Source: Oscillospiraceae bacterium (GTDB lineage Bacteria > Bacillota > Clostridia > Oscillospirales > Oscillospiraceae). From it: DNA of 64,000 nt. The notes under the pieces were generated by a model, which saw only the letters and a program-made list of their open reading frames with translations, had not been told where the DNA came from and ran no database searches. Made by a program: the position numbers and the translations under genes. The stretch covers positions 5,538-69,537 of the forward strand of contig JAHHSJ010000005.1 of NCBI GenBank assembly GCA_020025295.1, written 5' to 3'. Of the stretch, positions 3,942 to 35,263 are shown one piece after another (positions within the stretch are counted from its first letter, which is position 1; each line of letters starts with the position of its first letter).

Positions 3942-4343
3942 TTACTGATCCGATTCGGAGGCGTGCTCCTGTAAATATCTCTTAAAGCACTGGAAGGTTT
4001 CTTCACTGATGTCATGTTCGATCTTGCAGGCGTCTGCCTGAGCAACGGCATCGCTGACGCCCAAGGAACGGAAGAACTTGGTGAGCAGGCAATGGCGCTG
4101 ATAGATGGTAGAGGCCAATTCGTAACCCTTTTCAGTGAAATCCAACAGACCGCTGGCATCGGTAGTAATCATACCGTTGTCACGCAGCTGCCCCATGGCC
4201 ACACTGACGCTGGGTTTACTGACATTGAGGTGATGGGCGACATCAATGGAACGACAGAAACCTTTCTCCTGACGAATCATGAGGATTGCTTCCAGATAAT
4301 CTTCGCCGGACTTATGGACAGCCAAATAAAGGCCCCCTTTCAT
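3942..4343 (-). CDS. DtxR/MntR-family metal-dependent transcriptional regulator
   Basis: I trimmed the ORF to the MKGGLYLAVHKSGEDYLEAILMIRQEKG... start. It shows the HTH and metal-site pattern of DtxR/MntR (SKPSVSVAM...HCLLTKFF). A terminator hairpin at 3911-3937 lies downstream. Confidence 0.75.
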   Translation of the reverse strand: MKGGLYLAVHKSGEDYLEAILMIRQEKGFCRSIDVAHHLNVSKPSVSVAMGQLRDNGMITTDASGLLDFTEKGYELASTIYQRHCLLTKFFRSLGVSDAVAQADACKIEHDISEETFQCFKRYLQEHASESDQ

Positions 4344-24568: not shown

Positions 24569-26182
24569 TTAGTTGGCAAGGGTCCATTCGTGGATGTTGT
24601 TGATGGAACCGTACATGGTGGGATGAGCGCCTTCCAGACGGTTGTTCTCTGCACCCAGAGGACCGTTGATGTAGAGGTCAATCATGGGGACGCTCTGCTG
24701 CACATAGGTGTCCACATGGAGCAGCGCCTCGGCATAGACCTCGGAATCGTTGGTGCTCCAAAGCACATCCAGCTGCTCAGCTACCGTGTCCGTCAGGTTG
24801 TGGCACCAGCTGTCCAGAACGAACTTCACATCCCAAGAGGGGTCCACCGGGGGATAGGTGTACTGCAAAGCCACCATAGCGGCGTCATCCTTGCCGGCCA
24901 GACCCATCAGGGTGTCCAGATCGACGGTCTTGATGTCCACCTGAATGCCCACGGAACTCCAAGCCTGCTGTGCCAGCTGAAGCGCCAGCGCCAGCTGAGC
25001 GTCACCGCTGTTGGCGTAGAGAGTGTAGGTGGTTTTGGGGTTCCAGCCCTCTTCTGTGGCCTTGGCCACCAGAGCCTTTGCACCTTCCACATCGTAGGCG
25101 GTGGGAGTCAGGTCCTTCCAGTAGGGACCGTCGGGCACAGCAAAGCCGTCAGCGTAAGTTCCGTTGCCGCCCAGCAGGCCGGTGACCAGCTGATCTCGAT
25201 TCAGAGCCAGCAGCATGGCACGGCGAATGTTTTCGTTGTCAACGATATTGGTGTTGAAGAAGATGTTTTCCACGGAGTAAGCGGTACCGTGCTCGCTGGT
25301 CACATTTTTGAGAGACTTGATGTTGTCATAGTCCTCGATTTCGATGGTGCCCAGCAGGGGAGGGACGAGGTCGATTTCACCGGACTGCAGCCCGGCGTAC
25401 AAGCCTGCACCGTCCACAATCTTGATGTTGGCGTTGGGGATGTTGACCGGGCCACGCCAGTAGGCGTCGTTGGCGGTGTAGGTCACATAGTGGTTGCTGT
25501 TGAAGCTGGTGGCCTTGTAGGGGCCGCTGACCACATCGGGGTGCGTGAACCAGTCGTAGGCGGCAAGCTCATTCTCCGGCACATCAGCCAGCACATGGGC
25601 AGGCATGGGAGCGATGAACTGAGCGTAGCCGTTGAGGAAGCTCACCAGGTTGATTTCGTTTTTGAAGGTGAAAGTGACGGTCTTTTCGTCCACCGCCTTC
25701 ACGCCTTCCAGCGTGGTAGCGCCCTCAGGGAGGTAACCGCTTTCATCGTCGGTGCCCACCAGAGCGTGGAGCATCATAGCGGGATTAGCAATCACGGGGG
25801 AGGCAAGACGAGTCATGGTAAAGACGACATCGTCAGCAGTAATGGGAGTGCCGTCGCTCCAAGTGGCGTCATCATTGATGTGGACGGTGTAAGTGAGATT
25901 GTCGTCCGTCGTGATGGAGTCAGCCAGCATATATTCAAACTCAGCGTTGGAGTCCAGAGCCACCAAAGGCAGGAACTGGAGGCTGATGGCGTAATAATCG
26001 GAGAGGACGCCGCTGATCAGAACCGGATTCAGAGAACCGATGCTGGCAGTACAGCCGATGTTGACTGCGTTCTTCGACGAGGAAGAAGTGCTCTGCGTCG
26101 GATCAGAACCGCAGGAAACCAAAGACAAGGTCAGCAACAGGGCCAGCATAAGAGCGGACAGGCGGCAAAAAATTTTTTTCAT
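24569..26182 (-). CDS. ABC transporter substrate-binding lipoprotein, family 5 (OppA/DppA-like)
   Basis: The signal peptide has a lipobox (LTLSLVSCGS). The 537-aa SBP_bac_5-like body has AAGGGAG upstream of its start. Confidence 0.8.
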   Translation of the reverse strand: MKKIFCRLSALMLALLLTLSLVSCGSDPTQSTSSSSKNAVNIGCTASIGSLNPVLISGVLSDYYAISLQFLPLVALDSNAEFEYMLADSITTDDNLTYTVHINDDATWSDGTPITADDVVFTMTRLASPVIANPAMMLHALVGTDDESGYLPEGATTLEGVKAVDEKTVTFTFKNEINLVSFLNGYAQFIAPMPAHVLADVPENELAAYDWFTHPDVVSGPYKATSFNSNHYVTYTANDAYWRGPVNIPNANIKIVDGAGLYAGLQSGEIDLVPPLLGTIEIEDYDNIKSLKNVTSEHGTAYSVENIFFNTNIVDNENIRRAMLLALNRDQLVTGLLGGNGTYADGFAVPDGPYWKDLTPTAYDVEGAKALVAKATEEGWNPKTTYTLYANSGDAQLALALQLAQQAWSSVGIQVDIKTVDLDTLMGLAGKDDAAMVALQYTYPPVDPSWDVKFVLDSWCHNLTDTVAEQLDVLWSTNDSEVYAEALLHVDTYVQQSVPMIDLYINGPLGAENNRLEGAHPTMYGSINNIHEWTLAN

Positions 26183-26375
26183 GGATCAAGCTCCCTTCTT
26201 AAGGTAAAATTGTGCAATTTATCGCAAACTACACCAGCTACATTATAAAGGAAAAACACAGAAGAAGTCCAGCTTTTTTTCCTTGGATAAGAATGTGAAA
26301 AGCGAGGAAGGAACAAAAAAGTCGGGCGCCCATAAGCGGACGCCCAACGGGGATCAAACAGAACCGGAACAGCGG

Positions 26376-26765
26376 TCAGGACAGCTTCTTTGCGTCGGTT
26401 TTGGACTGGAATTTCTCGCCATCCACCAGAAAACGCTCGTGGGTGCCCTTACCGATGAGTCCTGCCTCGTCGTAAACGGCAGCAGAGAAGACCAGTCGGC
26501 GGCGATCCACTTCTACCAGAGCGGTTTTTGCGGTAACCTTCATACCCACCGGAGTGGCGGCCAAATGCTGGATGTTGAGGCTGGTTCCGACGGTGGTCTG
26601 CCCCTCTTCCAGTTCAGAGGCAATGCTCATCAGGGCCGTTTTTTCGATGAGAGCGATCATAGCAGGAGTGGCAAACACATCCAGAGAGCCGCTGCCCATG
26701 GTTTTAGCGGTGTTGGTCTGATCTACCACCACGGTCTGTTCGCCCAGAATACCGGTGTTCAACAT
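26376..26765 (-). CDS. Hotdog-fold thioesterase family protein (FlK-like)
   Basis: The 129-aa ORF contains TAKTMGSGSLDVFATPAMIALIE...GTSLNIQHLAATP, the pattern of the small thioesterase family. GGAGG lies upstream and a terminator at 26322-26355 lies downstream. Confidence 0.65.
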   Translation of the reverse strand: MLNTGILGEQTVVVDQTNTAKTMGSGSLDVFATPAMIALIEKTALMSIASELEEGQTTVGTSLNIQHLAATPVGMKVTAKTALVEVDRRRLVFSAAVYDEAGLIGKGTHERFLVDGEKFQSKTDAKKLS

Positions 26766-26887
26766 AATTGGAGGACCTCCTCTAAATTTCAGTTGGCTTC
26801 ATGATAACACAGGGAAGGCGATGATTCAAACAAACCGGGGCAAACATGGGGAAAATTCCGATTCGAAGGGAAATTTAAGCGAAAGAA

Positions 26888-26916
26888 TTGCCAAGCGGAG
26901 GAATGTGTGGTACAAT
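26888..26916 (+). promoter_or_regulatory. Sigma-70-type promoter upstream of tRNA-Leu (TTGCCA-17-TACAAT)
   Basis: The hexamers and spacing are read from the sequence, about 70 nt upstream of the mature tRNA 5' end. Confidence 0.45.
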
Positions 26917-26984
26917 CTCGACAGTTCAAAGGGAGAGTTGCGCTCCCTTTTTGACTTTGCCAGAGGCAAGTAAACGGAATGTAT

Positions 26985-27069
26985 GCGGGTATGATGAAAT
27001 TGGTAAACATGCTGGATTTAGGTTCCAGTGCCGCAAGGCTTGTGGGTTCGAGTCCCACTACCCGTACCA
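26985..27069 (+). tRNA. tRNA-Leu (anticodon UAG), type II with a long variable arm and an encoded CCA
   Basis: I folded this by hand. The acceptor is GCGGGTA/TACCCGT (G1-U72 wobble), the anticodon stem is CTGGA/TCCAG with loop TTTAGGT, the variable stem is GCC-GCAA-GGC, the T-arm is GTGGG-TTCGAGT-CCCAC, and the 3' end is A-CCA. Confidence 0.9.
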
Positions 27070-27075
27070 AAATAA

Positions 27076-27104
27076 ACGGGCACGACTCACATCGTGCCCG
27101 TTTT
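27076..27104 (+). terminator. Intrinsic terminator after tRNA-Leu
   Basis: The hairpin ACGGGCACGA-ctcaca-TCGTGCCCGT is followed by TTTT. Confidence 0.75.
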
Positions 27105-27190
27105 GTCATGCTTTGGTGATACCAAGAGCGAACGCCAGTAAAAGAACACCCCCACAGCATCTGCTGTGGGGGTGTGTTCGTTTTTCAGAG

Positions 27191-28213
27191 TTAAACTTCT
27201 GCCAGCCAAAGCTTTTTGGGAGCAAATTTTACCGTATATGCTCCGTCAGTGTCCATGCACTGCTCCGAATAAGCAGTTACCGTTTCAGAACCCATTTGCT
27301 CCTCTGCGCCCTTGCACGGAATGCCCTTGGCAGGAAGAGCAACGGGGATCACATCAACCAGTTTGCCCTCAAAATAGATGCTTGCGTCCAGCATGCCGTC
27401 AACCGCCCAAGAGACCGAGTCAGGAATGCCATCCGCATCTGCTTTGAAGTGGTTGCAAATGGAAACATTCAGTACCAGACTCTTTTGATTGTCTGCTTTT
27501 TGTACCGCTGCGTCCAATTCCAACGCATCGAACAAAACCTCCGTAGGTACCGTTTCCAGCACCAGTTTGTCCTTGGATTCCTTGATCTGCTGTTCGCAGT
27601 CGGCGATGGAATCCCGGGTATGACCGATTTGTTCGGTCAGATCTCTTGCCCACTGCTCCAGCTGTTCTGTGTGGGACTGAGCCCCGGTTTGGTTTTGTGC
27701 AACAATCTGCTCGTTTTCCCGCATAACATCTACTGTCGTGCCCACACCGGCCGATCTGCCGACCAAGCCATTGGCAACTACGCCCACGATGGCCTTCTGG
27801 TTTTTAAGGGCCACCTGAGGAGGTGCTGAGGTTCTCGAGTGCTTACCAAGATTCGTTTTTTCCTGCTCAAGCCGGTGCAGTTCGTCTTCCAGAATCGACT
27901 TTTCTTCTTCCAGCATCCGTGTGCGCTTCTGAATGCCCTGCAAATCAGCAAGCTGACGATAGAACTGCATGACACGGGCGTGCATTGGGTCAAATGCTCC
28001 TGCCTGCGTTCCGCATGACTCAGAAGTGTCCAGTCCTGCCGCACGATTGAATTTAACGGCGAAGCCCAGCACAACGATTCCGCCAATGAAACAGAGAATT
28101 GGCAGGATGCGGTGATCTCCAAGGATAAGAGTCAAAATTCCAGCCAAAACAGCAAGCAAACCGATGATAAAAAGGATTGCAGCTGTTTTCTTGCTTTCCC
28201 GTTTGTCGTACAT
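27191..28213 (-). CDS. Hypothetical membrane-anchored coiled-coil protein (340 aa)
   Basis: GGGAGG lies 7 nt upstream of the ATG. The protein has two N-terminal TM helices, a heptad-rich region (LEEEKSILEDELHRLEQEKTNL, QLEQWARDLTEQ...) and a C-terminal domain that looks beta-rich. I recognise no family. Confidence 0.6.
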   Translation of the reverse strand: MYDKRESKKTAAILFIIGLLAVLAGILTLILGDHRILPILCFIGGIVVLGFAVKFNRAAGLDTSESCGTQAGAFDPMHARVMQFYRQLADLQGIQKRTRMLEEEKSILEDELHRLEQEKTNLGKHSRTSAPPQVALKNQKAIVGVVANGLVGRSAGVGTTVDVMRENEQIVAQNQTGAQSHTEQLEQWARDLTEQIGHTRDSIADCEQQIKESKDKLVLETVPTEVLFDALELDAAVQKADNQKSLVLNVSICNHFKADADGIPDSVSWAVDGMLDASIYFEGKLVDVIPVALPAKGIPCKGAEEQMGSETVTAYSEQCMDTDGAYTVKFAPKKLWLAEV

Positions 28214-28480
28214 AAGATTGCCTCCCTTTCTTGTTTGACAATGTAAGTCTGTAACGAGTGTTGCTTGGACTGAAAACGGACTTGATTAGATTGTAAAATA
28301 TTCGCCTATGTAATTGAACCGAGTATACATCAACGGTCAATCGTTTGCAAGCTATTTCGTACTCCTAATGTTTAAATTTTCCATTTGCCGTGGAAGCGCT
28401 TTGCTGCACCTATGACCGCACCTGATTTCCTCGCTGGAAAGGGGTAAGATTTCTACTGCGGAGTCACACGAACATAAAAC

Positions 28481-28520
28481 AAAAAGCACCGAAACGGCAC
28501 TGCCGTTTCGGTGCTTTTTT
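28481..28520. terminator. Terminator with A- and T-tracts on either side, downstream of the P-type ATPase stop (minus strand) and upstream of the start of the 27191-28213 gene
   Basis: The sequence is AAAAAGCACCGAAACGGCA-c-TGCCGTTTCGGTGCTTTTTT. Confidence 0.8.
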
Positions 28521-28524
28521 ACTG

Positions 28525-30627
28525 TTACAGTTCGTTCTCACTGGGAAGTTCGTGGCTTGGCAGAGCTGTCATGCTGTGCAGGCTGATGCCCAGCGTGGAC
28601 AGATTATGCAGCGTTGCCGAGGTGGCAGGCATAAGCACACCGGTAGCACCCAGCAGGATGAGCATGCTGTTGAAGCCCAGAATGAACCGATAGTTGGCAT
28701 GGATGCGCTTCATCAGTTCCGTGGAAATCTGACGCAGACGAACCAGCTCCCAGAGGTTTTCACCGGCAATGGTGATGTCCGCAATTTCCTGAGCGATGGC
28801 GGCACCGTCGCTGATTGCGATGCCCACATCGGACTCAGACAGGGCGGGGGAGTCGTTGATGCCGTCGCCCACCATGATGACGGTGTGACCGGCATTGCGG
28901 AGAGATGCCACATAGTTGGCCTTGTCCTCCGGCAGCACTTCAGCGTCAAACGCATCCACACCGACCTGAGCGGCAATGGCCTCGGCGGTGCGCTGGCTGT
29001 CGCCGGTCAGCATGACAGTTTTCTCAATGCCCAGCTTCCGCAGGGTGTGCAGCACAGCGGCAGCCTCTGCCCGGAGGGGATCCACGATGCAGATGACTGC
29101 GGCCAGCTTGCGGTCGATGGCCAGATACAGGTGGGAGTACTCAGCCGGAAGCGCATCGAACTTGTCCTGTTCGTCCTCAGGAATCACGCACTGCTCGTCC
29201 TCAAAGACAAAGTGTGCGCTGCCGATGAGCACCTTCAAATCGCCCACCTTGCTTGCAATGCCGTGCGCTACGATATACTCCACCTTGGAGTGGTACTCCT
29301 CGTGCTTCAGATCCCGCTGCTTGGCTTCCTCCACTACGGCGTTGGCCATGGAGTGGGGGAAGTGCTCCTCCAGACAGGCGGCCAGCCGCAGCATTTCAGC
29401 TTCCTCGTATCCGCAGAAGGGGATCACGGCAGCCACCTTGGGGCAGGCATGCGTCAGGGTGCCGGTCTTATCAAAGACAATGGTGTCCGCCTTAGCGATG
29501 GTTTCCAGGAACTTGCCGCCCTTGACGGTGATGTGCTCCTTACCGGCTTCCCGCATGGCAGAGAGCACCGCCAGAGGCATCGCCAGTTTCAGCGCACAGG
29601 AGAAGTCCACCATCAGCACCGACAGGGCACGGGTGACATTTCGGGTGAGCAGGAAGCTGAGCAGGCTGCCGGCAAATGTGTAGGGCACCAGCTTGTCCGC
29701 CAGATTGGATGCTTTGTTCTCGGAGGCAGACTTCATCTGCTCCGACTGCTCAATCATGGTGATGATCTGGTCGTAGCGGCTCTGGCCGGAGGCCTGATTC
29801 ACGGCAATGACACATTCACCTTCCTCGACGATGGTACCGGCATACACCGGGCTGTCCAGCCGCTTCTCGATGGGGACAGATTCGCCGGTGAGGGAAGCCT
29901 GATTCACCATGGCCTCGCCTTCGATGACTACGCCGTCCACAGGGATGATACCACCCACACGGAGCACCACCTGATCGCCGGGCTGCACCTGAGAAATGGG
30001 CACCAAAGCCTCACCCTCCGGAGTGCGGAGCCAGACCCGGTCCACATTCAGGGACATACACTGAGCCAAATCCTGAATGGACTTCTTCCGGGTCCACTCC
30101 TCCAGCAGCTCGCCCAGCTCCAGCAGGAACATCACCGACCCTGCGGTGGCAAAGTCTCGGCGCACGATGGAAATGCCGATAGAGATAGCGTCCAGCAGTT
30201 CTACCTTCATCTTGCGTTTTCGCAGACAACGCAGTCCATGGCGCAGGAAGGGAACTGCGTGCCAAAGTACACGGGCAATGCGCAGGGGAGCGGGGAAGAA
30301 CAGGGTGCTGGTGGCTTTGAGCGCCACCTTGGCAATCAGCTTTTCCTGAAACTCACGATTGAGCTTCCGGCTGCTGTGGGTCGGAGGCGTGACCGTTTTT
30401 TCAGCCAGCTCCCAAGAGAAGGTGCGCACGGCGTTCAGAATCTGTTCCCGATCGCCCTGATACTGCACTACAACGCAGCGGGTGCGCTCATGCACCGTGA
30501 CCCGAAGCACGCCGGCGGTTTTCTGAAACCAGGTTTCCAGCAGATCCGCCTGCTTCAGGCTCATTTGCGCTTGAACAAAGCGAAAGCGGATGCGTCCCCG
30601 GCTTTCATGTTCAATGATTGCATTCAT
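28525..30627 (-). CDS. P1B-type (heavy-metal) P-type ATPase with a non-canonical FSC(A) membrane motif in place of CPC
   Basis: I trimmed the start to MNAIIEHESRG, which has GGAGG upstream. TGES, DKTGTLT and GDGINDSPAL are present. At the position of CPC in CopA-type pumps the sequence reads VDFSCALKLAMP. The N-terminal ferredoxin-like domain has no CxxC. Confidence 0.85.
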   Translation of the reverse strand: MNAIIEHESRGRIRFRFVQAQMSLKQADLLETWFQKTAGVLRVTVHERTRCVVVQYQGDREQILNAVRTFSWELAEKTVTPPTHSSRKLNREFQEKLIAKVALKATSTLFFPAPLRIARVLWHAVPFLRHGLRCLRKRKMKVELLDAISIGISIVRRDFATAGSVMFLLELGELLEEWTRKKSIQDLAQCMSLNVDRVWLRTPEGEALVPISQVQPGDQVVLRVGGIIPVDGVVIEGEAMVNQASLTGESVPIEKRLDSPVYAGTIVEEGECVIAVNQASGQSRYDQIITMIEQSEQMKSASENKASNLADKLVPYTFAGSLLSFLLTRNVTRALSVLMVDFSCALKLAMPLAVLSAMREAGKEHITVKGGKFLETIAKADTIVFDKTGTLTHACPKVAAVIPFCGYEEAEMLRLAACLEEHFPHSMANAVVEEAKQRDLKHEEYHSKVEYIVAHGIASKVGDLKVLIGSAHFVFEDEQCVIPEDEQDKFDALPAEYSHLYLAIDRKLAAVICIVDPLRAEAAAVLHTLRKLGIEKTVMLTGDSQRTAEAIAAQVGVDAFDAEVLPEDKANYVASLRNAGHTVIMVGDGINDSPALSESDVGIAISDGAAIAQEIADITIAGENLWELVRLRQISTELMKRIHANYRFILGFNSMLILLGATGVLMPATSATLHNLSTLGISLHSMTALPSHELPSENEL

Positions 30628-30641
30628 ATAGAACCTCCATA

Positions 30642-30668
30642 GAAAAAGGAGTCGCAAAAGCGACTCCT
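30642..30668 (-). terminator. Intra-operon stem-loop with a U-tract between the small ORFs and the ATPase gene (attenuator-like)
   Basis: The minus strand reads GGAGTCGC-tttt-GCGACTCC followed by TTTTT, 15 nt before the ATPase RBS. Confidence 0.5.
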
Positions 30669-30683
30669 TTTACTGCCAGTTAT

Positions 30684-30965
30684 TTATGCTTCCTCACAGT
30701 TGCAGTCGCAAACCTGAGCAGCCTCTTTCTCAGCTGCTTCCTTAGCTGTGCGCTCTTCGTTCAGGTCCTTTGCAGCAGCGAGGATATCGCCGGCGTTCTC
30801 CTGAACGGTGGTCACGGTCTCCATCACAGAATCCTTCATCCGCAGGCCGGCGGCAGTGACATGGGTGTAAAGCTTCTTGGCATCCTTGCTGGTGAGCAGC
30901 TTAATACCGGCAGAACCAAACAAAGTACCGCCCACAAAGCAGGCCAATTTCATGTATTTACTCAT
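30684..30965 (-). CDS. Small hypothetical protein (about 93 aa) with an N-terminal hydrophobic helix and the C-terminal Cys cluster CDCNCEEA
   Basis: This ORF is in the track as 30684..30974. The ATG at 30965 has better spacing to AAAGGA. The sequence is MSKYMKLACFVGGTLFGSAGIKLL...EKEAAQVCDCNCEEA. Confidence 0.6.
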   Translation of the reverse strand: MSKYMKLACFVGGTLFGSAGIKLLTSKDAKKLYTHVTAAGLRMKDSVMETVTTVQENAGDILAAAKDLNEERTAKEAAEKEAAQVCDCNCEEA

Positions 30966-31004
30966 AACAAACATTCCTTTCTTCAGATGATAGTTTCGAT
31001 GATG

Positions 31005-31085
31005 TTATTTATGCTTGTATCCAGTGATCATTACCATAATCATACAAATTACGGCGCCCCACGCCCAAAAACGATGCTGCTTCAT
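31005..31085 (-). CDS. Possible 26-aa single-TM micro-protein (MKQHRFWAWGAVICMIMVMITGYKHK)
   Basis: GGAGGA lies 7 nt upstream of the ATG, and the ORF is the first in the transcription unit, downstream of an extended -10 promoter. It is below the ORF-track cut-off. Confidence 0.4.
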   Translation of the reverse strand: MKQHRFWAWGAVICMIMVMITGYKHK

Positions 31086-31134
31086 GGCAATTCCTCCTTT
31101 TGGATTCAATCATTCAATCTTTTTCGACTTTTTT

Positions 31135-31164
31135 ATTATAGCACAATGCTTTCCGGTTAGACAA
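31135..31164 (-). promoter_or_regulatory. Extended -10 promoter for the micro-ORF/ATPase unit (TTGTCT-18-TGcTATAAT on the minus strand)
   Basis: Read from the sequence: ...ttgtctaaccggaaagcattgtgctataat... Confidence 0.5.
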
Positions 31165-31741
31165 TCATAATAAAGAGTGATTTTCCCAAAATTCACAGAA
31201 GATTAAAAATCTTAATCATCAAAGGCCCAATGAGCCACAGCGCTTGTTTCTGCGCCGGAACAGGGTAGCAGGCTGCACGGAGAAAATGAGAGAGATTTAT
31301 ATAATTAAATGTATCGGAGCAGGCGAAAAATCAAAAAAGATTGGGACAGGGTGAAAAATGTCAGTATTTTGGACAAAAATGCAGTTTGAGGGCGGAAAAA
31401 CGGAAATTTGCCCGGGTTGAAGCAGAACCGAGCCGGGGAGAGTGTTTTATCCTTCGAATCCGTTCTAATTTGCAAAACAAAAAATTTCCAATTTTCTGAG
31501 AAAAAATCTAAGAGGAACCTGCAAAAAAGATCAGAATTGAACCTTTTGTATAGAAAATGCACTTTGAAATCAGAACCGTTTGATGGAGAAAAATCGAAAA
31601 AACGGGGCCCAAAAACGGGATGGCCCAAAAGCACGGGTGCCAAAAAAGTCAAGCTTTCAATTGTAAATTTTTTTAGACGCATACCGTTATATTCATGAAA
31701 AATAGAGTTGATTCGCAAATCTTTGTTGAAAATTGACGGTG

Positions 31742-31769
31742 TTGACAAAGGGGGCGAAGGGAGTATAAT
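31742..31769 (+). promoter_or_regulatory. Near-consensus sigma-70 promoter of the atp operon (TTGACA-16-TATAAT)
   Basis: The hexamers lie at 31742-31747 and 31764-31769. AAGGAGGG and the atpB ATG follow about 30 nt downstream. Confidence 0.7.
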
Positions 31770-31802
31770 ATTTTCGTTTTAAATATGTAAGGAGGGTTAT
31801 AA

Positions 31803-32609
31803 ATGGGGAAACGAAGCCTCAAGATTTTTATCAGTGTCATGTCCATTATCATGGTACTGCTGCTGATCGGAATCTTTCTGATCGGTGGAAGCCCCGCAGG
31901 TGAGTCTGTCAGTGGAGTGATGCGCGACTGCGTGCTTCATGAGCATGACAGGATCAACCTCTTCGGGGGGATGCAGGTGAATCCGGGTGCGATTTCGGCG
32001 TTTACCGTCACCGGAATGGTGCTGATTTTTGCGCTGATCGTACGAATTTTTGTAATTCCCAAATTCAAACTTGTACCTGGAAAGTTCCAGATGGTGCTGG
32101 AGCAGGCCGTCGGATTCTTTGATAATCTGGCAAAGACCAACAGCCCGGGGAGAAATTCGTTCCTGGGCGCCTATGTGTTTGCGGCCGGTGTGTACATCTT
32201 CCTCAGCACGCTGTTTGAGCTGCTGGGCCTTCAGGCGGTGACTGCACAGGGACATCCCGTCACCTTGCCTGCACCGCTTTCGGACATCAACGCCGCAATT
32301 GCTATGGGCTGCCTGTCCTATCTGGTGATTCTGTCCGGCGGTATCCTGTCCAACGGCATCAAGGGTGTGGGAAAGACGCTGAAGGAGTTCTCTCTGCCCA
32401 TCTCCATGAGCTTCCGTCTGTTCGGCGGTCTGCTGAGCGGCGCTCTGGTGAGTGAGCTGGTCTACTACTATGTCCAGCTGAGTTTTGTGCTGCCGGTCCT
32501 TGTGGGCGTCATGTTCACGCTGCTGCATGCATTGATTCAGACCTATGTTCTTACCCTGCTGACCTCTCTGTTCTACGGAGAAGTGTCGGAAAAGAAAAAG
32601 GCAGAGTAA
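31803..32609 (+). CDS. atpB: F0F1 ATP synthase subunit a
   Basis: This polytopic 268-aa protein carries the conserved Arg helix (ISMSFRLFGGLLSG). It is the first gene of the atp cluster. Confidence 0.85.
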   Translation: MGKRSLKIFISVMSIIMVLLLIGIFLIGGSPAGESVSGVMRDCVLHEHDRINLFGGMQVNPGAISAFTVTGMVLIFALIVRIFVIPKFKLVPGKFQMVLEQAVGFFDNLAKTNSPGRNSFLGAYVFAAGVYIFLSTLFELLGLQAVTAQGHPVTLPAPLSDINAAIAMGCLSYLVILSGGILSNGIKGVGKTLKEFSLPISMSFRLFGGLLSGALVSELVYYYVQLSFVLPVLVGVMFTLLHALIQTYVLTLLTSLFYGEVSEKKKAE

Positions 32610-32641
32610 GAATACACTAAAATAATAAGGAGAAATTTGCT

Positions 32642-33031
32642 ATGAATAAGATGCTGAAAAGAATTATGGTTAGCCTTTTGGTTGTAATTTTGGTTTGTGC
32701 AACTGCAATCCCCGTGTTCGCAGTGGGCGGCGCTGATGATGCCAAGAAGGATCAGGCTGTCACCACCGCAGCGGAGACCGAGACGGAAGAGACTGCTGAG
32801 GACAACAGCATTGGCGCCAAGGCCATCGGTGCCGCTATTGCTGTGGGTCTGGCCGCTGCTGCCGGTGCAATCGGCATGGGCATGGCAGTCGGTAAGGCTA
32901 CGGAAGGTATTTCCCGTCAGCCTGAGGCAGAAGGCAAGATCAGAACCACCCTTATGCTGGGTCTGGTGTTTATCGAAACGGCAATCATCTATGCCCTGAT
33001 CATTGCTATCCTGGTCATCTTTGTGTTGTAA
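32642..33031 (+). CDS. atpE: F0F1 ATP synthase subunit c with a ~55-aa N-terminal extension (signal-peptide-like helix + acidic linker)
   Basis: The C-terminal 75 aa form a canonical c hairpin (GAIGMGMAVGKATEGISRQPEAEG...GLVFIETAIIYALI). The N-terminus is MNKMLKRIMVSLLVVILVCATAIPVFAVGGADDAKKDQAVTTAAETETEETAEDNS. Confidence 0.85.
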   Translation: MNKMLKRIMVSLLVVILVCATAIPVFAVGGADDAKKDQAVTTAAETETEETAEDNSIGAKAIGAAIAVGLAAAAGAIGMGMAVGKATEGISRQPEAEGKIRTTLMLGLVFIETAIIYALIIAILVIFVL

Positions 33032-33048
33032 GACGGAGTGAATGAGTT

Positions 33049-33537
33049 ATGCCATTAAATATTGATTGGCAGCAGATTTTGCTGCATTTGTTTAACTTTG
33101 CTCTTCTGTTTACCATCCTGTATGTGCTGCTCTATAAGCCGGTGAAGAAGTTCATGGACCAGAGAAGCAATTACTATAAGGAACTGGACGAGAAGGCGAA
33201 GAAGAGCGTGGAAGACGGCGCTGCCGCTCAGGCACAGTATCAGCAGCAGCTGGATACGGCCAAGGATGAGATCGACGCCATGCGTGCCAAGGCCAGCAAG
33301 GAAGCCAGCCAGCTGAGCGAGACCATCATTGCTGAGGCAAAGGAAGAGGCCTCTCATATCATCGCAGACGCAAAGACCGAGGCCAACCGTGAGCGTAAGC
33401 GCATTTTGGCCGGTGCCGGGGAAGAGATTTCTCAGATCGTGACCGACGCCGCTGCAAAGCTGGTGTTCCCGGATGCGGACAGCGCCTATGAGGACTTCTT
33501 GACCGCAGTTGAAGGAAGTGAGCAGGATGAGCGATAA
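33049..33537 (+). CDS. atpF: F0F1 ATP synthase subunit b
   Basis: The 162-aa ORF has one N-terminal TM helix followed by a long charged helix (KELDEKAKKSVEDGAAAQAQYQQQLDTAKDEIDAMRAKA). Confidence 0.85.
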   Translation: MPLNIDWQQILLHLFNFALLFTILYVLLYKPVKKFMDQRSNYYKELDEKAKKSVEDGAAAQAQYQQQLDTAKDEIDAMRAKASKEASQLSETIIAEAKEEASHIIADAKTEANRERKRILAGAGEEISQIVTDAAAKLVFPDADSAYEDFLTAVEGSEQDER

Positions 33538-35263
33538 AAGACCGATGCAGGCCTTTCTGGTTTCGGCTAAGGCTCCTTCTGCCGAGCATGAAGCTCGGTT
33601 CCTGACCTTCCTGACTAAGAAGTACGGAGAGGGCATTGAGCTGGTCTGGAAGAAGGACGAAACCGTGAAGAACGGCTTCCGTCTGGAAGTCGGAAGCGAG
33701 ATTTACGACTGGAGTGCTCAGGGCCGCTTTGCTCAGTTCAAGAATGCACTGGGCAGCATCAAGGCCGAGAACGATGTGATTCCCCTGCTGAAGGAGAAGG
33801 TCGGCAATTGGGTGCCGGAGGCATACGCCGAAGAGCGAGGCATCGTGCAGTCCGTCGGTGACGGTATTGCCACGGTGTCCGGTCTGGAGCACGCCACCTA
33901 CGGCGAAGTGCTGCTGTTTTCCGGCGGAATTCGCGGCATGGTGCAGGAACTGGACGAGAACGGCGTGGGCTGCATCCTGTTCGGTGATGACGAGCAGATC
34001 AGCGCCGGCAGCATTGTCTGCAGAAGCGGAAAGCCGGCCGGTATTCCGGTGGGCCATGGTATGCTGGGCCGTATTGTCAACGCACTGGGCGCACCTATTG
34101 ACGGCAAGGGTGACATCGAGGAAGAGGCCTTCTACCCGGTGGAAAAGCCCGCTCCGGGCATCATTGACCGCCAGCCGGTCAATGCTCCTCTGGAGACCGG
34201 CATTCTGGCCATTGACTCCATGTTCCCGATTGGCCGGGGCCAGCGTGAGCTGATTATCGGCGACCGCCAGACCGGCAAGACCGCCATTGCCATTGATACC
34301 ATCATCAACCAGAAGGGCAAGGATGTCATCTGCATCTATGTGGCCATCGGCCAGAAGGCCAGCAGCATTGCCCAGCTGGCGCAGAACCTGAAAAAGCACG
34401 GCGCTATGGATTACACCATCATCGTGAATGCCAGCGCCAGTGAGCCGGCCCCCTATTTGTATGTGGCGCCTTACGCCGGCTGTGCCATCGGTGAGTACTT
34501 CATGGAGCAGGGCAAGGATGTGCTGATCGTCTACGACGACCTTTCCAAGCACGCCGTGGCCTATCGTACCCTGAGCCTGCTGCTGGAGCGTTCTCCCGGT
34601 CGTGAAGCCTATCCCGGCGATGTGTTCTATCTGCATTCCCGTCTGCTGGAGCGTTCTGCTCACCTGAGCGACGCCAAGGGCGGCGGCAGCATGACCGCTC
34701 TGCCGATTGCAGAGACCCAGTCCGGCGATGTGTCCGCTTATATTCCCACCAATATCATCTCCATTACCGACGGCCAGATTTTCCTGGAAAGCGACCTGTT
34801 CTATTCCGGTCAGCGTCCCGCCGTGAATGTGGGCCTGTCCGTGTCCCGTGTGGGCTCTGCGGCACAGTACCCGGCCGTGAAGAAGGCCTCCGGCGCACTC
34901 CGTCTGAGTCTGGCCCAGTACCGTGAGATGGAAGTCTTTACCCAGTTTGCCAGCGATCTGGACGCCGCTACCAAGCGGCAGCTGAAGTTCGGCACCGAGC
35001 TGATGACCATTCTGCGTCAGAAGCAGTTCAGCCCCTTCAAGATGCACGAGCAGGTGATTTTGCTGGTGGCTGCGCTGAACAATGCATTCCAGAATGTGGA
35101 GCTGGACTCCGTCCTGTCCACATCCAAGGATATGCTGGCGTATTTCAATACCAACTACGCTTCTCTTTGCAAGGATCTGGAAACCAGTGGTGACCTGACC
35201 GACGAGAACAAAGAGAAGATCATTGAAATTGCACGGGAATTCACGCAAAAAGCCGGGTGGTGA
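33527..35263 (+). CDS. atpA: F0F1 ATP synthase subunit alpha carrying an in-frame N-terminal delta (OSCP) C-terminal-domain-like segment
   Basis: Residues of about 1-75 (AFLVSAKAPSAEHEARFLTFLTKKYGEGIELVWKKDETVKNGFRLEVGSEIYDWSAQGRFAQFKNAL) fit the delta C-terminal pattern. The rest is a normal alpha subunit (Walker A GDRQTGKT). There is no stop codon between the two parts. The ATG at 33527 has GAAGGAAG upstream. Confidence 0.85.
   Translation: MSDKRPMQAFLVSAKAPSAEHEARFLTFLTKKYGEGIELVWKKDETVKNGFRLEVGSEIYDWSAQGRFAQFKNALGSIKAENDVIPLLKEKVGNWVPEAYAEERGIVQSVGDGIATVSGLEHATYGEVLLFSGGIRGMVQELDENGVGCILFGDDEQISAGSIVCRSGKPAGIPVGHGMLGRIVNALGAPIDGKGDIEEEAFYPVEKPAPGIIDRQPVNAPLETGILAIDSMFPIGRGQRELIIGDRQTGKTAIAIDTIINQKGKDVICIYVAIGQKASSIAQLAQNLKKHGAMDYTIIVNASASEPAPYLYVAPYAGCAIGEYFMEQGKDVLIVYDDLSKHAVAYRTLSLLLERSPGREAYPGDVFYLHSRLLERSAHLSDAKGGGSMTALPIAETQSGDVSAYIPTNIISITDGQIFLESDLFYSGQRPAVNVGLSVSRVGSAAQYPAVKKASGALRLSLAQYREMEVFTQFASDLDAATKRQLKFGTELMTILRQKQFSPFKMHEQVILLVAALNNAFQNVELDSVLSTSKDMLAYFNTNYASLCKDLETSGDLTDENKEKIIEIAREFTQKAGW

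Follow-up and report, generated by a model that had tools for sequence, protein, structure and literature searches.

Ferrosomes, a recently recognised type of bacterial organelle, matter for the capacity of Clostridioides difficile to withstand the withholding of iron by its host. They have been described as lipid-bounded iron stores, and their formation requires FezB, a P1B-6 ATPase recognisable by a D[Y/F]SCA motif, an HNxxT motif and an 'R-rich' N-terminus without any known metal-binding domain (Grant, Komeili et al., bioRxiv 10.1101/2020.01.10.902569). Nearly all fez clusters also encode a FezA-like protein with a GxxxG motif (Grant et al., bioRxiv 10.1101/2020.01.10.902569). In C. difficile, the operon of which is named fezXAB in the secondary literature, FezA and FezB are reported both to be required for ferrosomes and to give ferrosome foci in Escherichia coli (PMC11533511; PMC11651100; bioRxiv 10.1101/2025.09.22.677801). 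A related small membrane protein, PacL, serves the mycobacterial pump CtpC as scaffold and chaperone and belongs to the DUF1490 family, of which DUF6110 has been described as the firmicute relative, typically encoded with P1B6 pumps (Boudehen et al.). The locus considered here lies in a stretch of 64,000 nucleotides (the window) from an Oscillospiraceae bacterium of the gut (GCA_020025295.1, contig JAHHSJ010000005.1, positions 5,538 to 69,537), in which a 26-residue peptide, a 93-residue DUF6110 protein and a 700-residue P-type ATPase are encoded in one unit on the minus strand. The most probable reading (about 0.8) is that this unit is a fez (ferrosome) operon, in which the peptide, FezA and FezB are expressed from one promoter, with a leaky terminator before FezB.

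The pump gene (30627-28525, minus strand) has an ATG at 30627 preceded by GGAGG at 30638-30634; a TTG start listed at 30657 falls within the hairpin described below and was discarded. Its product matches TIGR01525 (heavy-metal P1B ATPases) with 489 bits and has a complete P-type catalytic core (TGES at residue 247, DKTGT at 386, GDGIND at 587). All three signatures that define FezB are present, and the pump is a FezB-type member of the P1B-6 group: DFSCA at residues 341-345 in the fourth transmembrane (TM) helix, TM4 (29607-29593), HNLST at residue 674 in the last one, TM6 (28608-28594), and the arginine-rich RGRIRFR at residues 10-16 (30600-30580). The first 250 residues contain no CxxC and match HMA_2 below threshold only. 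The spacing of the last motif is N-x20-HN, that cited in PMC13460109 being N-x18-HN. A preliminary description of this DNA had correctly noted the FSC in place of CPC and the N-terminus without CxxC, and had presented the pump as uncharacterised, with SCA types of unknown substrate, a claim to be given up if the pump grouped with a characterised subgroup. This view is out of date, since the motifs place the pump in P1B-6, that is, with FezB (bioRxiv 10.1101/2020.01.10.902569), and the claim fails by its own test. The genome encodes one SCA-type pump, plus two CPC pumps with CxxC domains. Relatives of the pump at 75-99% identity are annotated merely as 'heavy metal translocating P-type ATPase'. 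The PDB holds no structure of a P1B-6 pump, the closest solved relatives being 7qbz, 3rfu and 4umv, and no structure of a DUF6110 protein was found there.

The gene upstream of the pump (30965-30684, minus strand, with its stop at 30686-30684) encodes a member of Pfam DUF6110 (PF19605; E = 2e-31, 108 bits for a gathering cut-off of 26). The ATG at 30965, giving 93 residues, is favoured by the Shine-Dalgarno (SD) spacing and by the relatives; the list of open reading frames (ORFs) has 96 residues from 30974. In the protein, a hydrophobic GxxxG helix (GTLFG) at the N-terminus is followed by a long helix rich in Glu and Ala and by an acidic tail, so that the pump is encoded with a small protein having a hydrophobic GxxxG region, as is typical of fez clusters. 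An AlphaFold2 (AF2) model, of low confidence (pLDDT, the predicted local distance difference test, 60), places helices at residues 2-24 and 27-87 followed by an unstructured end, an arrangement that would correspond to a PacL-like layout. Many DUF6110 relatives match both Pfam families, DUF6110 and DUF1490. Of 61 related genomes, 11 have a DUF6110 gene, as do 33 of the 400 searched across the class, and a D[YF]SCA pump lies directly 3' of the gene in all 11 loci of the relatives and in 28 of 29 class-level loci (39 of the 40 loci fetched). The DUF6110 protein is best read, first of all, as a membrane scaffold of the FezA/PacL type, and not as a ferredoxin-fold chaperone.

Compared with published descriptions of FezA and FezB of C. 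difficile, the two loci, each from an anaerobic Firmicute of the gut, agree in having a single operon for a small membrane protein and a P1B-6 ATPase; they differ in that no Fur box was found here and that this FezA carries a CDCNC tail. The fez clusters of Desulfovibrio magneticus, Shewanella putrefaciens and Rhodopseudomonas palustris (bioRxiv 10.1101/2020.01.10.902569) share with this locus the D[Y/F]SCA and HNxxT motifs, the R-rich N-terminus of the pump and a partner protein with a GxxxG hydrophobic helix, but they comprise three to six genes, including FezC (an HMA domain and two TM helices, DUF4405-like), which has no counterpart here. Judged by its sequence, the locus has every feature expected of a fezAB-type ferrosome module, and iron transport by the pump and the formation of an organelle in this organism would follow by analogy with other fez systems.

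Several points weigh against the identification as a ferrosome operon. The evidence for this organism comes from sequence, and the equation of DUF6110 with the characterised FezA is drawn from common architecture and from the reported association of the family with P1B6 pumps; in a homology search, low-GC FezA sequences found matches in Peptoniphilaceae and Clostridium, and none in C. difficile. The low confidence of the AF2 model of FezA counts on the same side, and Cys-rich tails point to thiophilic metals (Zn, Cd, Cu) no less than to Fe(II). In C. difficile, the two genes are induced when iron is low and when fur is mutated (PMC6311696), which was counted in favour of the identification. 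Near the promoter of this operon no 7-1-7 Fur box with three or fewer mismatches was found, and matches with up to four mismatches occur in 18 of 60 upstream regions of relatives, versus about 10 expected, which is a weak excess. With a promoter lacking the box and only this modest enrichment, Fur control is too weakly indicated to be claimed. The genome has one Fur-family gene.

If the operon works as other fez systems do, a single promoter would yield the 26-residue single-helix membrane peptide, FezA and then, past a leaky hairpin, FezB. The GxxxG helix of FezA would serve as membrane anchor, with the Glu/Ala-rich helix and the acidic, Cys-rich tail facing the cytoplasm, and FezA would be an abundant scaffold needed for the formation of vesicles. 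On the model of D. magneticus, S. putrefaciens and C. difficile, FezB would move Fe(II) from the cytoplasm into these small membrane-bound vesicles, where the iron would be kept as an iron-phosphate mineral. The hairpin would stop part of the transcripts, such that the peptide and FezA outnumber the pump.

The hairpin (30667-30643, minus strand) lies within the 56 nucleotides that separate the end of the DUF6110 gene from the start of the pump gene. It consists of a stem-loop at 30667-30648, GGAGTCGC-TTTT-GCGACTCC, and five T residues at 30647-30643, and resembles an intrinsic terminator in its eight GC-rich pairs (12 with the A-U pairs), its loop of four and the U5 that follows, although the U-tract is short and interrupted (UUUUUCUAU). 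Its fold has a z-score of -5.1, and none of 200 shuffled sequences folded as well. A generic terminator scan of the locus did not list it, in our reading because the A/T extension of the stem uses up the T-run. The space between the hairpin and the ribosome-binding site (RBS) of the pump is too short for a promoter, so that only transcripts extending past the hairpin can yield the pump. GC hairpins with a T-run and unrelated stems occur between fezA and fezB in other loci (L011, L013-L015, L017, L020, L050-L052 and L057); in a second clade, the two genes are 3-24 nucleotides apart, with no hairpin. In a survey of 31 named loci for which both gene ends could be set, 20 had a spacer of at least 25 nucleotides, and 16 of these 20 had a hairpin with a T tail, versus 15 of 400 shuffled controls, again with unrelated stem sequences; fezA and fezB abut or overlap in the other 11. 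A structure kept at one position without conservation of its sequence argues for selection. The most economical reading of these sequences is that the hairpin is a partial terminator, through which scaffold and peptide would come to outnumber the pump. The proposal that it sets the ratio of small proteins to pump is supported by the recurrence of the element at the same place with differing sequences, while termination itself is a prediction.

Less probably, the hairpin does not terminate transcription, and serves instead to stabilise the 3' end left by RNase cleavage or to modulate the translation of fezB. In either case FezA would again exceed FezB, and structure would be selected for without sequence conservation; the short, interrupted U-tract also speaks for this reading. 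Stabilisation of a processed 3' end has the same outcome as termination, and the present data fit both alike. The T-rich tail that follows the stem in those 16 of 20 relatives would be needless for a pure stabiliser, and the RBS of the pump lies outside the stem, which also counts against these alternatives.

The first gene of the operon (31085-31005, minus strand) comprises 26 codons, MKQHRFWAWGAVICMIMVMITGYKHK, and encodes a putative single-helix membrane peptide. Its ATG at 31085 is preceded, at a distance of six nucleotides, by GGAGGA, and its TAA is at 31007-31005. The peptide is equivalent to a single repeat unit of Pfam DUF6219, matching profile positions 1-25 of 69 with 27.5 bits versus a cut-off of 27; it falls outside that family, for which two repeats (an H-[KR]-[FY]-[WF]...TG[YH]K helix, about 65-70 residues in all) are needed, only one unit being found here. 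Searches with a degenerate DNA pattern that fixed nine residues, applied to one genome per species, returned at least 120 stretches; 80 loci were analysed, and the counts given below for the peptide are among the matches listed. The gene occurs in named gut Clostridia, among them Flavonifractor, Intestinimonas, Pseudoflavonifractor, Agathobaculum, Enterocloster, Blautia and Eubacterium, as well as Anaerotruncus colihominis and Butyricicoccus pullicaecorum. Its length is 26 codons, no more and no fewer, in 78 of the 80 named species, the stop codon being unconstrained by the pattern. Residues K2, H4, C14, T21 and G22 were imposed by the search, and conservation outside the pattern is seen at A8 (71 of 73), W9 (62 of 73), M17 (65 of 73) and K26 (64 of 73). 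An SD-like motif precedes the gene in 73 of 79 cases. In a comparison of eight loci, drawn from two families, 24 of 25 columns are variable at the third codon position and nine of 25 at the second, and the peptide genes of loci L001 and L020 differ by 14 synonymous and two nonsynonymous codons. This coding-type conservation, which the preliminary description had made a test of its micro-ORF, argues strongly that the 26-codon ORF is a real gene. A few such peptides are already present, unnamed, in the NCBI and JGI protein sets.

The genomic context links the peptide to the pump just as strongly. A FezB pump is encoded next to it in 58 of 76 informative loci, which, together with the DUF6110 counts given above, confirms that both small ORFs are kept beside orthologous pumps, a point on which the preliminary description had made its reading depend. 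In 55 of the 76 loci, the peptide gene is directly upstream of fezA, with a spacing of 11-30 nucleotides; the pump was seen in 49 of these 55, five end at the edge of the available DNA and one has an unrecognised middle gene. Three of the 76 (L087, L129 and L159) have a permuted order, with the peptide gene 3-57 nucleotides downstream of the pump, and the full order fezA-fezB-peptide, with the DxSCA motif, was confirmed for L087 and L129. The remaining 18 have other contexts and mostly belong to a WHKFFAW subtype. Peptides of this subtype are encoded directly 3' of a metallo-beta-lactamase-like (MBL-fold) gene in L098, L104, L110 and L111, with no fez genes nearby. The peptide and FezA are in the same frame in this genome, with a single TAA between them, and a fusion produced by read-through was considered and rejected; this frame relationship is not conserved, since 54 loci are split 25:15:14 between the three frames.

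Small single-helix subunits of P-type ATPases are exemplified by KdpF of KdpFABC and by sarcolipin and phospholamban of SERCA. They resemble the present case in that a membrane peptide of 26-31 residues is encoded with, or acts on, a P-type pump; the likeness is one of analogy only, as they have no sequence similarity to the 26-residue peptide. A kinship of the peptide with the membrane domain of DUF4405/FezC, or with the first helix of HyaC-type cytochrome b, was considered and not adopted; NCBIfam gives a weak match, and hhalign a probability of 33% over 14 columns. From its linkage to the pump, we infer that the peptide may be a membrane partner of FezB. That it should instead be a generic membrane peptide present in these operons by chance, or a leader ORF tuning downstream expression, appears unlikely. 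The 18 loci with other contexts, such as those after MBL-fold genes, and the duplicated form (true DUF6219) found beside rubredoxin, hemerythrin and peroxiredoxin genes would fit such a role, but the linkage to the pump outlasts a change in gene order, the amino-acid sequence itself is kept at the four positions outside the search pattern, and the 11-30 nucleotides between the peptide gene and fezA offer no hairpin alternatives. True DUF6219 proteins are tandem duplications of the 26-residue unit (MKAHKYWSVGALITMLGTFYTGYKK then SSHKYFALSSMLCMVMAIYTGHKM), as in L021 1501-1713 (plus strand) and L022 1480-1722 (minus strand). With 70-80 residues, they are rare (two of 399 genomes), and their genes are flanked by hemerythrin-like or rubredoxin genes on one side and by a peroxiredoxin gene on the other; several copies, on short contigs, occur in one genome.

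The C-terminal tail of this FezA is AAQVCDCNCEEA, and the codons of its C-D-C-N-C cluster, within the terminal QVCDCNCEEA, are at 30710-30696 (minus strand). Of the 120 nearest clusters at 90% identity, 32 have at least two Cys residues in the tail, mostly as VCDC[N/S/T]CEE and in some cases expanded to CDCDCECDC, CECECDCNC or CDCEEDCKECC. DUF6110 relatives beyond this clade have purely acidic, Cys-free tails, and Cys tails are rare among 148 DUF6110 representatives at 50% identity. Separate CxC tails were observed in Anaerococcus (VACECECGCEEE and VSCGCGCEEHEE) and in Clostridium-type relatives (KECECEEK), and DUF6110 proteins of L078 and L100 also have CxC tails. The CDCNC tail is confined to one clade of about 30 close clusters, the CxC tails of Anaerococcus and Clostridium having arisen separately. 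PacL1 ends in a motif, DLHDHDH, proven to bind zinc (bioRxiv 10.1101/2021.10.01.462712), and the CDCNC cluster has the same position, at the extreme C-terminus. This makes a chaperone-like role of the tail a fair analogy, and so much survives of the earlier proposal that the Cys-cluster protein may be a dedicated metallochaperone; the protein would primarily be a FezA/PacL scaffold. For the same reason, a published statement that DUF6110 proteins have no metal-binding motif holds for most members and, if the tail binds metal, not for this clade. By analogy with what the PacL1 motif does for CtpC, we infer that the tail may bind metal and may feed or buffer the pump.

The likeness to the PacL1-CtpC 'effluxosome' of Mycobacterium tuberculosis (bioRxiv 10.1101/2021.10.01.462712; PMC13460109) extends to the stated relationship of DUF6110 to DUF1490 and to the architecture, in which a pump without CxxC is preceded by a small scaffold whose C-terminus bears a metal motif, putative in this case. 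The systems differ in that the PacL1 motif consists of His and Asp and binds Zn, and CtpC is a CPC pump, whereas the Oscillospiraceae locus combines a CDCNC tail with an SCA pump. The locus is not a member of the PacL-CtpC family, because its pump is SCA rather than CPC and its tail Cys rather than His/Asp. It is improbable that the locus encodes an efflux platform of that type without an organelle, with a DUF6110 scaffold in the cytoplasmic membrane, the Cys tail of which would take Zn, Cd, Cu or Co for export by the pump: the kinship of the scaffold with PacL, the equivalent position of the zinc-binding motif, the P1B-6 features that CtpC has in common and the nature of CxC clusters as typical soft-metal ligands favour it, but the pump lacks the CPC of CtpC, all P1B-6 pumps tested so far build ferrosomes, the two CPC pumps with CxxC domains already provide this genome with pumps for Cu and for Zn/Cd, and the Cys tail is missing in most DUF6110 relatives.

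In another clostridial clade (L065, L066, L068, L074, L075 and L078; L061 907-1149), the first gene of the fez operon encodes a PF12669 'FeoB-associated Cys-rich membrane protein', with matches at E = 6e-11 and 5e-13. The order in these loci is the PF12669 gene, a gene for a one-TM peptide of about 40 residues, fezA and fezB, with a gap of only 15-24 nucleotides between the last two, and they thus have a separate Cys-rich membrane peptide where the operon in the window has the 26-residue peptide and the Cys tail on FezA. PF12669 proteins resemble the latter in being short and membrane-anchored, with a CxC/CxxC cluster, and may supply the chemistry of the Cys tail; they differ in being a separate gene and family, absent from this operon. 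The presence of PF12669 as first gene provides an iron link for the other clostridial fez operons, and was counted in favour of the ferrosome interpretation.

The less-described parts of the module are the 26-residue peptide, the Cys tail on FezA and the hairpin resembling a leaky terminator, and these accessory parts offer handles on how the pump receives iron and how the stoichiometry of the organelle is set. They could, tentatively, be joined in one scheme, in which the ferrosome of Oscillospiraceae and Lachnospiraceae would be a three-part machine: the peptide, of invariant length and with His4, Cys14 and TGY, would be a subunit of FezB, the CxCxC tail would hand Fe(II) to a pump that lacks a metal-binding domain of its own, and the leaky terminator would fix the ratio of scaffold to pump. 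If this were true, DUF6110 proteins would be true metallochaperone-scaffolds of the PacL type, contrary to the published statement. Abundant gut commensals have the same module (among them Flavonifractor, Intestinimonas, Anaerotruncus, Butyricicoccus, Blautia and Enterocloster), a spread which suggests that such iron storage is widespread in the gut community. Where a small membrane protein is encoded upstream of an SCA-motif pump, the pair should be read as fezAB.

The promoter-like site, both small genes, the hairpin and the ATPase gene are all present on the minus strand as first described. The putative promoter, TTGTCT-18-TGnTATAAT with an extended -10, was found at 31164-31135 by a consensus scan (10 of 12 matches plus TG). 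About 40 nucleotides upstream of the -35 hexamer is a perfect palindrome, GATTAA-GATTT-TTAATC (31201-31217, minus strand), and the 5' leader contains a direct repeat, GATTGAAT-GATTGAAT (31104-31119, minus strand); neither is conserved in the nearest relative, L017. A different palindrome, (A/G)GTTAGC-N4-GCTAAC(T/C), precedes the operon in Ruminococcus/Eubacterium-type relatives, 38-50 nucleotides upstream of the peptide start in L136, L141, L146, L148 and L154, and further upstream in L095 and L145. We take its half-sites to recall DtxR/IdeR boxes. This palindrome was considered as a regulator site here and rejected, being absent from the operon in the window. In L131, a DtxR-family repressor gene (88-465) lies just upstream of the operon, and a DtxR-family regulator gene (Fe_dep_repress, 41 bits) is present at about 4161-4310 (minus strand) on the contig studied here, some 24 kb from the fez operon.

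The operon ends in an intrinsic terminator at 28519-28481 (minus strand), with an 18-bp stem followed by a T-run, identified by a terminator scan and with a fold z-score of -7.9. An Rfam scan of positions 26000-34000 gave no relevant match at the fez operon. The neighbouring gene, for a membrane coiled-coil protein (27191-28213, minus strand), is set apart from the fez operon by this strong terminator, and a tRNA gene (26985-27066, plus strand; Rfam, 57.7 bits) lies downstream of that neighbouring gene.

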